From a virus (Duplodnaviria > Heunggongvirae > Uroviricota > Caudoviricetes): 43,633 nt of DNA. Positions 1,331 to 41,827 of this stretch are shown piece by piece (position 1 is the first letter of the stretch; every line of letters starts with the position of its first letter). The translations under genes and the position numbers were made by a program. The notes under the pieces were generated by a model, which saw only the letters and a list, made by a program, of their open reading frames with translations, ran no database searches and had not been told where the DNA came from. The stretch lies in the IMG/VR virus record IMGVR_UViG_2563366881_000003. One strand, written 5' to 3'.

Positions 1331-1418
1331 GCTTTTTTATACTAAGTTGGCATTATAAAAAAGCATTGCTTATCAATTTGTTGCAACGAACAGGTCACTA
1401 TCAGTCAAAATAAAATCA
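1331..1418. other. attL: attL (core 1331-1345 plus lambda P-prime arm)
   Basis: Matches recalled lambda attP core and P-prime arm (GTTGGCATTATAAAAAAGCATTGCTTATCAATTTGTTGCAACGAACAGGTCACTATCAGTCAAAATAAAATCATTATTTG). Confidence 0.9.
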
Positions 1419-2489
1419 TTATTTGATTTCAATTTTGTCCCACTCCCTGCCTCTGTCATCACGATACTGTGATGCCATGGTGTCCGACTTATGCCCGAGA
1501 AGATGTTGAGCAAACTTATCGCTTATCTGCTTCTCATAGAGTCTTGCAGACAAACTGCGCAACTCGTGAAAGGTAGGCGGATCCCCTTCGAAGGAAAGAC
1601 CTGATGCTTTTCGTGCGCGCATAAAATACCTTGATACTGTGCCGGATGAAAGCGGTTCGCGACGAGTAGATGCAATTATGGTTTCTCCGCCAAGAATCTC
1701 TTTGCATTTATCAAGTGTTTCCTTCATTGATATTCCGAGAGCATCAACATGCAATGCTGTTGGGATGGCAATTTTTACGCCTGTTTTGCTTTGCTCGACA
1801 TAAAGATATCCATCTACGATATCAGACCACTTCATTTCGCATAAATCACCAACTCGCTGCCCGGTAACAACAGCCAGTTCCATTGCAAGTCTAAGCCAAC
1901 ATGGTGATGATTCTGCTGCTTGATAAATTTTCAGGTATTCGTCAGCCGTAAGTCTTGATCTCCTTACCTCTGATTTTGCTGCGCGAGTGGCAGCGACAGG
2001 GTTTGTTGTTATATGGCCTTCAGCTATTGCCTCTCGGAATGCATCGCTCAGTGTTGATCTGATTAACTTGGCTGACGCCGCCTTGCCCTTGTCTATGTAT
2101 CCATTGAGCATTGCCGCAATTTCTTTGGTGGTGATGTCTTCAAGTGGAGCATCAGGCAGACCCCTCCTTATTGCTTTAATTTTGCTCATGTAATTTATGA
2201 GTGTCTTCTGCTTGATTCCTCTGCTGGCGAGGATTTTTTCGTAGCGATCAAGCCATGAATGTAACGTAACAGAATTATCACTGTTGATTCTTGCTGTCAG
2301 AGGCTTGTGTGTGTGTCCTGAGAATAACTCAATGTTGGCCTGTATAGCTTCAGTGATTGCTATCCTCCTGTCTCGGCCTAATCCAAACTCTTTACCCGTC
2401 CTTGGGTCCCTGTAGCAGTAATATCCATTGTTTCTTATATAAAGATTAGGGGGTAAATCCCGGCGCTCATGACTTCGCCTTCTTCCCAT
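1419..2489 (-). CDS. int: Integrase, tyrosine recombinase (lambda Int)
   Basis: 356-aa ORF matching recalled lambda Int (MGRRRSHERRDLPPNLYIRNNGYYCYRDPRTGKEF...); adjacent to att. Confidence 0.95.
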   Translation of the reverse strand: MGRRRSHERRDLPPNLYIRNNGYYCYRDPRTGKEFGLGRDRRIAITEAIQANIELFSGHTHKPLTARINSDNSVTLHSWLDRYEKILASRGIKQKTLINYMSKIKAIRRGLPDAPLEDITTKEIAAMLNGYIDKGKAASAKLIRSTLSDAFREAIAEGHITTNPVAATRAAKSEVRRSRLTADEYLKIYQAAESSPCWLRLAMELAVVTGQRVGDLCEMKWSDIVDGYLYVEQSKTGVKIAIPTALHVDALGISMKETLDKCKEILGGETIIASTRREPLSSGTVSRYFMRARKASGLSFEGDPPTFHELRSLSARLYEKQISDKFAQHLLGHKSDTMASQYRDDRGREWDKIEIK

Positions 2490-2685
2490 TTCTGATCCTC
2501 TTCAAAAGGCTACCTGTTACTGGTCGATTTAAGTCAACCTTTACCGCTGATTCGTGGAACAGATATTCTCTTCCGTCCTTAACCGGTGGTGGAAATATCC
2601 TGCACTCGCGTACCCATCGACGAACTGTTTCAAGGCTTCTTGGGCGTAGCTGGCGAGCGTTCCACTCCTGAAGTGTCAAGTACAT
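2467..2685 (-). CDS. xis: Excisionase (lambda Xis)
   Basis: Internal Met MYLTLQEWNARQ... gives 72 aa matching recalled lambda Xis; overlaps int start as in lambda. Confidence 0.9.
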   Translation of the reverse strand: MYLTLQEWNARQLRPRSLETVRRWVRECRIFPPPVKDGREYLFHESAVKVDLNRPVTGSLLKRIRNGKKAKS

Positions 2686-2712
2686 CGCAAAGTCTCCGCA
2701 ATTACACGCAAT

Positions 2713-2733
2713 AAAAAACCGCATTGATGCGGC
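2713..2733 (-). terminator. Rho-independent terminator upstream of xis (minus strand)
   Basis: Hairpin CCGCA-tcaa-TGCGG followed by T6 on the minus strand. Confidence 0.5.
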
Positions 2734-2791
2734 GATGGTAGGTCTGGATATCTTGAGAAATGAACAGGCCTCATCGAGTGTGAGGCTGTGG

Positions 2792-3136
2792 TTAGTCCTT
2801 GCGTAACTCGCTAATTCTTCTGTAAGTCTCTGGTGCTTTGTTTCCGTGTATCTTCATTTCAGACTTCAACAGAGCAACGAGGGAATCCCATTCGTTGAGG
2901 ATGCCTTTGAATGCCGGAACGCGCTTTGCAACCTTGTCGAATGAATCTCTGATTTCTGGGATCTGCTCAACAAGTGCAACGCATCGCCGGAAGTCTGCTG
3001 CGTCATGTGGAGCGCCGAAGTGATGACCATAGATATTCTTTTTCAGTCCACATGCGATTGAGGCAAGAGTTGCGCTACTGATGCCGACATCGCCAGTCGA
3101 TTGCCATTTCAAAACCTTCATAGCCAAATCTGACAT
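2792..3136 (-). CDS. Hypothetical early-left (ea/b-region) protein, 114 aa
   Basis: ORF in the leftward operon distal to the recombination genes; no family recognised. Confidence 0.5.
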   Translation of the reverse strand: MSDLAMKVLKWQSTGDVGISSATLASIACGLKKNIYGHHFGAPHDAADFRRCVALVEQIPEIRDSFDKVAKRVPAFKGILNEWDSLVALLKSEMKIHGNKAPETYRRISELRKD

Positions 3137-3208
3137 TTCTTGTCTCCATAAAACAAAACCCGCCGTAGCGAGTTCAGATAAAAGAAATCCCCGCGAGTGC
3201 GAGGATTG

Positions 3209-39345: not shown

Positions 39346-39394
39346 ATTCACCGTAGCCCCGCTGCGGAGATTCCTTGTATCTGGAGCAAATTAA

Positions 39395-41383
39395 ATGACA
39401 GACATTACAGCCAATGTTGTAGTGAGTATGCCTTCGCAACTCTTCACTATGGCTCGTTCTTTTAAAGCCGTAGCCAATGGCAAAATTTATATCGGTAAAA
39501 TTGATACTGACCCGGTAAACCCTGAAAACCAGATTCAGGTTTATGTGGAGAACGAAGACGGCTCTCACGTTCCTGTTCCGCAACCAATCATCATTAACGC
39601 CGCTGGGTATCCGGTATATAACGGACAGATTGCCAAGTTCGTAACTGTGCAAGGCCATTCTATGGCTGTTTATGATGCGTATGGTTCGCAGCAGTTCTAT
39701 TTTCCGAATGTGCTAAAGTATGACCCGGATCAGTTAAGAACCGAACTATCTATTAATGGTGGTGCCGGATTAGTTGGCGCAGGAGTTATATCTAGAGGTA
39801 ATGATAAGTTTTCAATAATGCAGGGCAGGACATCAGAGTATTTAAATGATGGTCTTACATACGGTATTGGCATCATTATTAATGATTCAATTGTTGGTTC
39901 TGTTCCTAATGCAAGCACAGCTAAAATAAACTATATCATGATTAATGATGACAGAATTAATGCTGTTGATGACCAATCGGCAGGCACAAAAGTTGACGGG
40001 TTTTTAGTTCACCATAATTTCGGATATCAAGAAGCAAAAGGTGGCAGACACGCCGGAGAGTTTGTTTTAACTCACGAAGCAGCCACAAGCTTAGAAAATC
40101 CTGATAGAAATTATGTTGGTGTTGTTGGTCTTGCGGTTTCACAAAATGGTGATGGTGGAACGATATCATCATCACCTGGTACATTCAAAGGAGCATATTT
40201 TGGCGGAAATATGTATGGACGCCTGGATTCTGCTGCGGTTGGAGTTTATAACGTTACAGGGTGTGAGTTTAATGTTTCCGCGTTAGTAGGTTCATCTGTA
40301 TGGTATCGATCAGGTATTCAGATTGTCGGTGGTGGTGATGTTCGAGGTACTGCTGTAGATACTGGTATTGCCTTATCAAACCTTTCTACTTCAACCGTTT
40401 GCTGGAAAAACGCTATTCGCATAGGCAACATGAATGGGGGGCACGCCCTAGCAGAAGATAGTAAAATACTTGTTGCATTTACAAATGTGCCATCCATAAC
40501 ATCAGGATTCGAGATACCAAAATGCTCATCAATGATATTGATGTCAGGTGACGTTACTTTACAAAATAGTAAATTGAATATCGCATCTGTTGGCTCATCT
40601 ATTGAACTTGGTAGCACAACAGATTCCGGTGTTTCATATATTGACTTTCACTCAAGCGGAAATAATGTTGATAACGATGGAAGGATTTTCTGTTCTGGTG
40701 GTTCTGAAGATTCTGGTGATGGGACTATTGGATTTAATTCTTCAATTATTCAACTTAACTCAAAAACAGAAATAGTCATGGGGTCTGGCATTAGACCATC
40801 TCTTGACAACACCTATGATTATGGAACAGCTTCCAAAAGAGGAAGAACAGCGTATTTTGGTACCGGGTCAATTAATACATCTGACTCTCGCCATAAACCA
40901 ATCAAAGAAAAAATACCAGAATATATTCTTGACGCGTGGTCAGAAGTAGACTGGGGGACATGGTTTAAATTTGATGACGCAATAGCGATAAAAGGAGAAG
41001 ATGGTGCGAGATGGCACTTTGGACTGATTGCGCAGCGTGTTGAAAAAGTTTTTTCATCACATGGAATAGATGGATTTAAGCTTGGCTTGCTATGTTATGA
41101 CTCATGGGATGACGTTTACGTTGATGTGCAGACAAATATAGGGGAGGTGGTAAAAAAAACAAGAGAAACGAGCGATGGAAATACAGAAGAATATACTGAA
41201 CCTGCCCCTGCAAAATTTAAAAAGGTTCTTGATACACCAGCTGGTGAAAGATACGGAATTCGTTATGAGGAGGCCTTGTCTCTCGAGGCTGCATTACAAC
41301 GGCGTAACTACTTTCGTTTGCTGGAGAAACAAAAAGAGTTAGTTATGCGTATTGAGAAAATAGAGGGTATACTTGGAATGTAA
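39395..41383 (+). CDS. Tailspike: P22 gp9-like N-terminal head-binding domain, distinct receptor-binding body, C-terminal intramolecular-chaperone (peptidase S74-like) domain
   Basis: First ~115 aa match recalled P22 tailspike ([11 protein letters not shown]...[18 protein letters not shown]...VLKYDPDQ); C-terminal SDSRHK...[16 protein letters not shown] resembles autoproteolytic chaperone domains. Confidence 0.8.
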
Positions 41384-41512
41384 ATTTTATATATCACAGT
41401 ATATCTAGACACATTATGTGTCACTTACCTATATGAATGGCGTGGCAACAAAAACTGTGGCATATAAGCTTTGCACTGGATTGCAAGGCTTTGTGCTCTT
41501 CGATAGTGGTTA

Positions 41513-41534
41513 AGGTGGATCACTCCACCTTTTC
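41513..41534 (+). terminator. Rho-independent terminator after the tailspike gene
   Basis: GGTGGA-tcac-TCCACC followed by T4. Confidence 0.6.
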
Positions 41535-41624
41535 ATCAATCCAGTCCGCCCACCACTGCATCATTTGCTCTGCGCTTATCGAGATACTGAGCATGGTTGT
41601 AAATTCAACTAACCCAGTGAGTTG

Positions 41625-41666
41625 ACAAAAAATTAGCGCAAGAGGACAAAAATCACCTTGCGCTAA
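41625..41666 (-). terminator. sib/tI-like minus-strand hairpin terminator in the attP P arm (candidate)
   Basis: 10-bp inverted repeat TTAGCGCAAG...CTTGCGCTAA, followed on the minus strand by T6, about 150-180 bp from the att core. Confidence 0.4.
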
Positions 41667-41679
41667 TGCTCTGCCTCAG

Positions 41680-41827
41680 GTCACTAATACTATCTAAGTA
41701 GTTGATTCATAGTGACTGGATATGTTGTGTTTTGTAGTATTATGCAGTCTATTATTTAGACCAAATCTTTCATAACATATTGATATTTACAGTGTTTTCT
41801 GTTTCTCGTTCAGCTTTTTTATACTAA
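41680..41827. other. attR: attR (lambda P arm plus core 41813-41827)
   Basis: TCACTAATACTATCTAAGTAGTTGATTCATAGTGACTG... and core GCTTTTTTATACTAACTTGAGCG match recalled lambda attP P arm and attB right half. Confidence 0.9.

Follow-up and report, generated by a model that had tools for sequence, protein, structure and literature searches.

Insertion site and integration cassette

The stretch of DNA analysed here (IMG/VR record IMGVR_UViG_2563366881_000003; hereafter the window, 43,633 nt) carries a prophage inserted between ybhC (1-1284, minus strand) and ybhB (41918-42394, minus strand) of Escherichia coli, which we read as a temperate lambdoid phage of the P22-like group, probably complete in structure. 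A sequence-only reading of the window had described a single complete mosaic prophage at the attB site of phage lambda, and what is found is indeed one element between two att cores, with the full lambdoid gene order.

Exactly two copies of the 15-bp lambda att core (GCTTTTTTATACTAA) are present in the window, one at 1331-1345 and one at 41813-41827, both with 0 mismatches, as first read (expected by chance, 0.01). The left copy, which is identical to the lambda core, is the core of attL (B-O-P', plus strand) and the right copy that of attR (P-O-B', plus strand). The empty site was reconstructed by joining 350 nt from the left of the prophage, one core and 350 nt from its right, and the resulting 715-nt ybhC-ybhB junction is found unbroken at 100% identity in complete E. 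coli genomes, including those of Nissle 1917 and ATCC 11775. Because the cores are identical and the empty site is restored at 100% identity, the element, of 40,482 bp, is precisely inserted at lambda attB, in agreement with the placement proposed at the outset. Its G+C content is 46.2%, compared to 52.0% for the flanks. Integration next to a tRNA gene was ruled out, as a tRNA scan of the window found no tRNA gene. The ybhC-ybhB attB region is unbroken in 3,492 of the 5,426 complete E. coli genomes searched and not in the other 1,934 (~36%), so interruption of attB, by a prophage or another insert, is common in this species.

The integration cassette is of the lambda type. Positions 1331-2733, which span the core, the P' arm, int and xis, are 97.7% identical to lambda 27724-29126. 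The integrase (1419-2489, minus strand) differs from lambda Int at 4 of its 356 residues (K60T, E134K, H164P and I248V) and Xis (2467-2685, minus strand) at 2 of 72, which bears out the near-identity claimed for both genes. The catalytic residues of lambda Int are R212, K235, H308, R311, H333 and Y342, and none is hit by the substitutions at 60, 134, 164 and 248. Both att arms had also been described as near-identical to their lambda counterparts, which holds for the P' arm (1346-1418, plus strand; 100% identical) and not for the P arm (41623-41812, plus strand), since 41623-41831 is only 87.6% identical to lambda. The arm-type Int decamers P1 (AGGTCACTAA) and P2 (ATAGTGACTG) are nonetheless kept in the P arm; the names of the att sites (P1, P2, Xis, Fis, H2) are those established for lambda. 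When attP is reconstituted, the attP-int-xis cassette aligns to lambda gapless and unbroken at 96.4% identity, and it is likewise 96.4% identical over 1,760 nt to that of the temperate Lederbergvirus Huey.

Virion and lysis genes

The virion genes form a cluster in the P22 order (terS, terL, portal, scaffold, coat, gp4, gp10, gp26, gp14, gp7, gp20, gp16) that is complete and in order, and their products, together with the tailspike, match the Pfam families P22_portal, P22_CoatProtein, P22_Tail-4, Phage_stabilise, Phage_tail_NK, P22_gp7, Inj_translocase, Phage_P22_gp16 and Head_binding. The packaging and head module (22688-28829, plus strand; terS, terL, portal at 24522-26648, scaffold and coat, all full length) is of the Sf6/HK620 type: from terS to coat it is 98-98.7% identical to HK620 and Sf6 in nucleotides and 99-100% in amino acids. 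By contrast, the portal protein shares only 32% of its residues with that of P22, and blastp of the coat protein and terminases against P22 gave no hit. The head genes had been called P22-like; this stands at the level of the group only, the subtype being that of Sf6 and HK620.

The tail and ejection block (29405-37043, plus strand) holds hkbT and the genes for gp4, gp10, gp26, gp14, gp7, gp20 and gp16, all full length. The gp26 tail needle has 317 aa and a knob of the Sf6 type, and gp4, gp10 and this knobbed needle belong to the same Sf6/HK620 lineage as the head genes. The ejection proteins gp7, gp20 and gp16 are full length and of the P22 type, as anticipated.

The lysis cassette (19629-20846, plus strand) encodes S (107 aa), R (158 aa) and Rz (145 aa), with an intact Rz1 embedded at 20608-20793. 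S, R and the first ~250 nt of Rz, up to 20657, are 93.3% identical to lambda in nucleotides, and S and R 98% identical in amino acids, so that their description as lambda-like was correct as far as it went; Sf6, however, is closer, being 96.7% identical over 19387-21009, that is, over the whole S-R-Rz/Rz1 cassette, with Rz 97% identical in amino acids. As a whole, the lysis cassette is the Sf6 arrangement and not a direct graft from lambda. Between the lysis genes and terS lie an Sf6 gene 66-like open reading frame (ORF), a DUF2560 ORF and a homologue of hkbN/orf59c (together 21782-22623, plus strand). The hkbN homologue (22486-22623, plus strand), directly upstream of terS, has lost 1 bp in a run of A relative to HK620 and Sf6 and encodes a frameshifted product of 45 aa.

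Immunity and early control

The sequence-only reading overlooked an immunity and early-control module of the HK022 type with putL and putR. Positions 9833-11460 are 99.2% identical to phage HK022 over 1,628 bp and, according to the annotation of the lambda-HK022 hybrid O276, comprise pL, putL, cI, pR, cro, putR and cII, both promoters being 100% identical. The block contains the putL antiterminator RNA site (9837-9899, minus strand), pL (9915-9943), the cI repressor gene (10018-10725, minus strand; 235 aa, with a helix-turn-helix and an S24 peptidase domain), pR (10746-10773), cro (10805-11035, plus strand), the putR antiterminator RNA site (11060-11116, plus strand) and cII (11157-11453, plus strand; Pfam Phage_CII), with cI, cro, cII and the operators all of the HK022 type. 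CI differs by 5 substitutions from that of O276, whose cI is a temperature-sensitive allele. Rfam, run at the gathering threshold, returned no match to a put family, its only matches in the prophage being the sar RNA and the cIII thermoregulator; the two put sites were identified by 100% identity to the annotated HK022-type putL and putR of O276.

Leftward of putL, the nun exclusion gene was not found: an ORF for an HNH endonuclease (HEG-1, see below) and a remnant of an N/gene-24 antiterminator gene stand in its place. The remnant (9112-9240, minus strand) consists of the C-terminal 43 codons of a P22 gene-24-like gene, contains an in-frame TAG and lacks the N-terminus. Put function does not depend on nun, which is peculiar to HK022 itself. 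In that phage, nascent put RNA is by itself enough to render RNA polymerase resistant to pausing and termination (PMC9378689). Early antitermination in the present prophage is thus predicted to be RNA-based, via putL and putR, and the broken N/gene-24 remnant would then be harmless. We accordingly considered and rejected the absence of N as a disabling lesion, the HK022 put module being present and the same block being carried by an isolated phage, Salmonella phage UPF_BP1. Indeed, the block made of the N/24 remnant, the HNH endonuclease gene and putL is 97.9% identical in UPF_BP1, and putR-cII 94% identical; because this phage was isolated with the block, the arrangement is compatible with a viable phage. 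UPF_BP1 differs from the prophage in its repressor and operators and in its Salmonella host. HK022, for its part, is a siphovirus that has an int and an att of its own, and its nun is replaced here by the HNH endonuclease ORF.

The origin of the remnant is apparent from a sister prophage (L027, in SRR26493979), which is 99.4-99.9% identical over 1768-4787, 5277-9177, 11461-16752 and 17292-22989 and carries an N gene and other cI, cro and cII genes in place of 9178-11460. A 2.3-kb block (HEG-1, putL, HK022 immunity and putR) thus sets the two prophages apart, and the remnant is explained by the left boundary of the swapped segment, which falls within the N gene. The comparison indicates that the prophage arose by the usual lambdoid exchange of modules.

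Replication, nin region and late control

The replication pair resembles that of P22, as had been recognized: it is 82.9% identical in nucleotides and consists of a gene-18-like initiator (11634-12464, plus strand; 80% aa identity) and a gene-12-like DnaB-type helicase (12461-13837, plus strand; 458 aa, 90% aa identity). Four iterons of ~20 bp at 11983-12069, within the initiator gene, mark the origin. In the nin region (13910-17818, plus strand), ninE, ninX, ninF, roi, the ybcO-like gene, rusA and ninH are intact; the region also holds a second HNH cassette (HEG-2) and a ninB pseudogene (14615-15025, plus strand). Translation of the latter would start at the GTG at 14615 and stop at codon 14 (14654-14656), where CAA has become TAA, which confirms the defect first noticed; the sister prophage has CAA at this codon.

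The late antiterminator Q (17815-18333, plus strand) is of the Sf6 type (98% aa identity); in the Sf6 record, Q is called phage 21-like. The late promoter pR' (18311-18340; TTGACA-18-CATAAT) and the terminator tR' (18381-18401) follow, and the same leader and HNH gene stand downstream of Q in phage HK629.

Four HNH endonuclease cassettes

The sequence-only reading also overlooked four cassettes encoding HNH endonucleases, which we label HEG-1 to HEG-4. HEG-1 (9242-9775, minus strand; HNH_3, 177 aa) occupies the position of nun/N. HEG-2 (16746-17270, plus strand; HNH_3, 174 aa) uses the former start codon of rusA. HEG-3 (18528-19040, plus strand; HNH_3 and AP2, 170 aa) is at the same place in phage HK629, and HEG-4 (28844-29350, minus strand; HNH_3) is placed in antisense orientation within the late operon, with the coat gene on one side and hkbT on the other. 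The four ORFs, all above the Pfam cut-off, form one paralogous family, the other three being 35-43% identical to HEG-1, and by comparison with HK620, Sf6 or the sister prophage the cassettes are clean insertions of 0.5-1 kb. HEG-3 had a shorter gene call in the sister prophage, and we considered that it might be degenerate there; this was rejected, the two sequences being identical.

The distribution of the cassettes is narrow. The only phage records that carry any of them are HK629 (HEG-3) and UPF_BP1 (HEG-1), at the same sites, and HEG-2 and HEG-4 had no megablast match among 50,697 phage records. Among the 5,426 complete E. coli genomes, one or more of the four are present in only 80, with identities that stay within 96.6-99.9% and, in the matches listed, with the same site occupied. 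An identical HEG-4 protein recurs in 45 database blocks; in 8 of the 8 loci shown its gene is flanked by those for coat and gp4, and these loci are Sf6-type prophages with differing downstream modules. This cassette has its own near-consensus promoter (29402 to 29374; 11 of 12 positions match sigma-70) and shares the coat terminator (28836-28853).

Presence and absence at a fixed site can be seen for HEG-4, by comparison with HK620 and Sf6, and for HEG-2, by comparison with the sister prophage, which has no HNH cassette at 16753-17291 and an intact ninB. The start codon once used by rusA (ATG AAC G) is now that of HEG-2, whose cassette supplies a new 5' end to rusA, such that MAEYRFT replaces MNEYQFV. 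Around the empty site of the 99.9%-identical sister, 3 of the 7 mismatches in the flanks fall within 19 nt of the junction. The recoded end of rusA and these clustered substitutions are suggestive of a homing target site and of co-conversion, and the overall pattern appears to be that expected of homing endonucleases. Each cassette occupies a fixed place in a different operon. It is conceivable, though we regard this as a tentative proposal, that these enzymes, if active, cut the HEG-less alleles of co-resident or co-infecting lambdoid phages and drive co-conversion of the flanks, which would make them a driving force of module exchange in temperate lambdoid phages. Within the prophage, only the HNH cassettes might repay further work.

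Relation to known phages

Coverage of either half of the element stays below 80% in all 50,697 phage genomes, with maxima of 45% for the left half (HK629, JEP4) and 59% for the right half (vB_EcoP-611R6); collinearity with a single described phage is thus not observed. Likewise, none of the 5,426 complete E. coli genomes reaches 80% coverage of either half. Query-side similarity is 0.475 for Gally, 0.464 for 611R6, 0.434 for HK620, 0.359 for Sf6, 0.223 for P22 and 0.097 for lambda. The threshold for a genus is ~70% nucleotide similarity, and members of the mosaic genus Lederbergvirus are equally far apart in genome-wide similarity. Indeed, mosaicism is high in this genus and its members are placed by their structural genes (PMC11990801). 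The early region shows lambdoid synteny (int-xis ... cIII ... cI-cro-cII-replication-nin-Q-lysis), and many of the best E. coli matches are P22-like prophages that lie beside ybhC and have a tyrosine integrase.

The phages closest in design are Huey (PQ850609) and Gally (OV696608), which share with the prophage the P22-type order, a head of the Sf6/HK620 type and a lambda-family int-xis-attP, and differ from it in their tailspikes, with an overall similarity below 0.5. About 50% of the genome is shared with Gally at 93-98% identity; the int gene of Gally, by contrast, is only ~78-81% identical in nucleotides, its immunity region is of the P22 C2/N type, and in its record none of the four HNH insertion regions aligned. 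Huey was compared over attP-int-xis only, and the phage-wide search with the HNH genes gave no match in Huey. Gally, described as P22-like with a lambda-family int, is induced spontaneously and by ciprofloxacin, makes podovirions and performs lateral transduction (PMC9928086), and Huey forms turbid plaques on K-12, which was taken to indicate lysogen formation (PMC11990801).

HK620 and Sf6 share with the prophage, besides terS to coat, gp4, gp10, the lysis cassette, the Q gene (Sf6) and the recombination block (HK620). They differ in having an integrase of the CPS-53/IntS type (which lies beside a tRNA-Arg gene in the related 611R6 record), N-dependent immunity regions, an HK022-type O with a long helicase, other alleles of gp14 to gp16 and other catalytic domains in the tailspike; Sf6 alone, compared with HK620 and the prophage, has two tRNA genes downstream of Q. 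P22 shares the architecture, the replication pair (80-90% aa), sieB, immI (87% nt), gp10 (94% aa) and the head-binding domain of the tailspike (76% aa), whereas its terminase, portal and coat are of its own type, as are its int and attP, and it has the gene 24 antiterminator, gtrABC and an endorhamnosidase tailspike. With lambda the prophage has in common the attB site, the core, the P' arm, Int (99% aa), Xis, S and R (98% aa) and the orientation relative to gal and bio; only ~10% of the genome aligns to lambda, whose virion, replication, immunity and Q all differ. From these comparisons we regard the element as a new combination of familiar modules and not as a new kind of element, its design being already present in the isolated phages Huey and Gally.

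Proposed cycle and weighing of the alternatives

The modules suggest the following cycle. In the lysogen, the HK022-type CI would keep pL and pR off, and Mnt would keep ant off. SOS-triggered self-cleavage of CI would allow pL and pR to fire, and the nascent putL and putR RNAs would produce a terminator-resistant RNA polymerase with no need for an N protein. The gene-18-like initiator would bind the four iterons in its own gene and load the phage DnaB-type helicase, while the Sf6-type Q, acting at pR', would carry transcription past tR' into the genes for lysis and those of the Sf6 type for headful packaging and the head. Excision would depend on Int, Xis and host factors. The virions would bear the tailspike, for whose receptor-binding domain phage records offer no close relative.

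We estimate at about 0.8 the probability that the locus holds one structurally complete temperate lambdoid P22-like phage (Lederbergvirus, Sf6/HK620 head subtype) of 40,482 bp at lambda attB. That this prophage is also inducible seems somewhat probable. Several points weigh against this reading. Most of the 12% divergence of the P arm falls in the stretch that holds the Xis, Fis and IHF-H2 sites of lambda, and this, together with the 2 substitutions in Xis and the 4 in Int, may affect the efficiency of excision. The sequence departs from Sf6 directly after the -10 element of pR', and compatibility of Q with its qut site would rest on HK629, which was compared for the leader and HNH gene and not for its type of Q. 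The genes for gp14, gp7, gp20 and gp16, although full length, are divergent alleles (22-74% aa identity to the references), whose compatibility with an Sf6-type head we infer from their co-occurrence in other assemblies. Three defects were found, namely the nonsense codon in ninB, the N/gene-24 remnant and the 1-bp frameshift in the hkbN homologue. Finally, the four HNH cassettes, one of them antisense in the late operon, add ~2.2 kb and may affect late transcription and headful size.

Much the same features could be invoked in favour of a cryptic, defective prophage that looks intact but in which a mismatch between modules or accumulated insertions and mutations block excision or growth: the ninB nonsense codon, the dead N remnant and the hkbN frameshift, a P arm only 87.6% identical to lambda and altered in the Xis/Fis/H2 stretch, an HNH cassette that lies antisense within the late operon and has a strong promoter, and a genome 1.4-2.2 kb longer than those of Sf6 and HK620, which share its head genes. 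We nevertheless consider such a defect unlikely. The genes expected to be essential are all full length by comparison with HK620, Sf6, P22 and lambda; frameshifts and truncations were looked for in them and none was found. Full length also holds for all virion, replication, lysis and regulatory genes for which a comparison was possible, and the head module is 99-100% identical in amino acids. The statement that nothing obviously disabling is visible apart from ninB therefore stands insofar as no essential gene is truncated, and has to be amended by the addition of the N remnant and of the frameshifted small ORF. These mutated genes appear to be accessory; to our knowledge, drawn from lambda and P22, none of the three is essential. 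The put sites would replace N functionally, and the hkbN deletion is common to the sister prophage. Moreover, the odd features recur elsewhere: the HNH-putL arrangement in UPF_BP1, HEG-3 with its leader in HK629, HEG-4 in the 45 database blocks, at the same site in the eight loci shown, and the attP-int-xis cassette in Huey.

A composite, in which a lambda-like int-xis remnant would have been joined to a separate P22-like prophage by tandem insertion or by mis-assembly, is highly improbable. It is true that the likely source of the window is a draft assembly (GCA_000351005.1, whose scaffold KB732444.1 is 100% identical over 29395-43633) and that a median of 4 places per E. coli genome resemble the left half, so that collapsed repeats are conceivable. 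However, there are only two att cores, and the arms are placed as in a single insertion, P' beside int on the left side and P on the right side; the gene order is continuous and lambdoid throughout, and the window contains no undetermined base (N). In addition, the left half is 100% identical over 19-21 kb both in another GenBank assembly (1634-22464, GCA_000326165.1) and in the independent Logan assembly of SRR647273 (1634-20462), and the overlapping right-hand 9.5-14 kb are 99.3-99.99% identical in three other assemblies. The idea that the element is a copy of a phage already described is even less credible. Single modules are 94-99% identical to HK620, Sf6, HK022, Gally, 611R6 or HK629, but the coverages of 45% and 59% and the best similarity of 0.475 given above speak against it, as do two HNH cassettes and a tailspike receptor domain for which phage records hold no close match.

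The structurally complete prophage that we favour is a clean worked example of lambdoid mosaicism, in which int and att come from the lambda type, immunity and put from HK022, replication and immI from P22 and head and lysis from Sf6/HK620, and the 99.9%-identical sister displays the swap of a single immunity block; its importance is modest. If inducible, a pac-type P22-like prophage at attB could laterally transduce the bio/uvrB side of the chromosome, as shown for Gally.

Accessory genes, immI region and tailspike

Downstream of xis, five early-left accessory ('ea') ORFs (2792-5282, minus strand) belong to PHROGs without assigned function, one of them being of the Ead/Ea22 family. They are followed by a recombination block of the HK620 type (5258-7460, minus strand; 94.3% nt identity) that comprises a DUF2737 ORF, abc2, SSB-like and Sak4-like genes, hkaM, kil and cIII. 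The cIII product has 46 aa, as in HK620, and the cIII thermoregulator RNA matched by Rfam lies at 7415-7473. Two ORFs without assigned function come next (7542-8370, minus strand; phrog_4658 and phrog_3054, the latter Sf6 gene 34-like), and then the superinfection-exclusion gene sieB (8514-9095, plus strand), whose product is 83% identical to P22 SieB.

Between the lysis genes and the Sf6 gene 66-like ORF, a 159-aa protein (21069-21548, plus strand) carries a C-terminal domain related to Tad2 (Thoeris anti-defence 2; Pfam PF11195). This domain, the C-terminal ~85 residues, matches SPO1 Gp34.65 with E = 7e-25; the ~75-residue N-terminal extension has no assigned function.

At the position of sieA, a small lipoprotein ORF (37127-37429, plus strand; LLSGC lipobox, phrog_5685) and a signal-peptide ORF (37447-37836, minus strand; phrog_32609) are candidates for exclusion functions expressed in the lysogen. 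Candidates for expression in the lysogen are SieB, the lipoprotein, the secreted protein and the Tad2-like anti-Thoeris domain. PADLOC, run on ten accessory ORFs, found no match to a defence system, and NCBIfam returned no family for the tailspike, the HNH proteins, the lipoprotein, the secreted protein, the Tad2-like protein or Q.

The adjoining immI region was correctly recognized as P22-like: mnt-arc-ant is 87% identical to P22 in nucleotides, with mnt (37814-38071, minus strand), arc (38162-38323, plus strand; 52 of 53 aa as in P22), the sar antisense RNA (38324-38391, minus strand; 92 bits in Rfam) and ant (38392-39294, plus strand; 86% aa identity to P22) in the P22 arrangement. The tailspike gene (39395-41383, plus strand; 662 aa) encodes a head-binding domain (residues 1-117) that is 76% identical to that of P22, in keeping with its description as P22-like, and 89-90% identical to those of HK620 and Sf6 (90% for Sf6). 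Beyond residue 118 (39749-41383), no relative above 58% amino acid identity was found in the phage collection, the best being EcoPhCCP1, and residues ~120-420 matched no Pfam family. The C-terminus is an intramolecular chaperone of the endosialidase type (Peptidase_S74). For the central domain, Pfam run at a relaxed threshold gave only a sub-threshold match to an endosialidase (E = 0.085), which we do not count as evidence. An identical tailspike is present with the same attB flank in another assembly (L008), on a P22-like backbone with different ejection proteins and immI.

Between the tailspike gene and the P arm, 41437-41625 (plus strand) and 41451-41758 are a patchwork of short pieces that match DNA downstream of the IntS-type integrase genes of HK620 (93%) and 611R6 (90%) and another segment of 611R6 (93%); the stretch 41437-41758 includes a 62-aa ORF without any family. 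Outside the prophage, the ORF at 42503-43633 (plus strand) in the right flank was considered as bioA; this was rejected on the basis of a family match (NF040570, 369 bits), which identifies it as a TnpB gene of the IS200/IS605 family. This ORF, which encodes an RNA-guided endonuclease, sits between ybhB and bioA and is present in related assemblies too.

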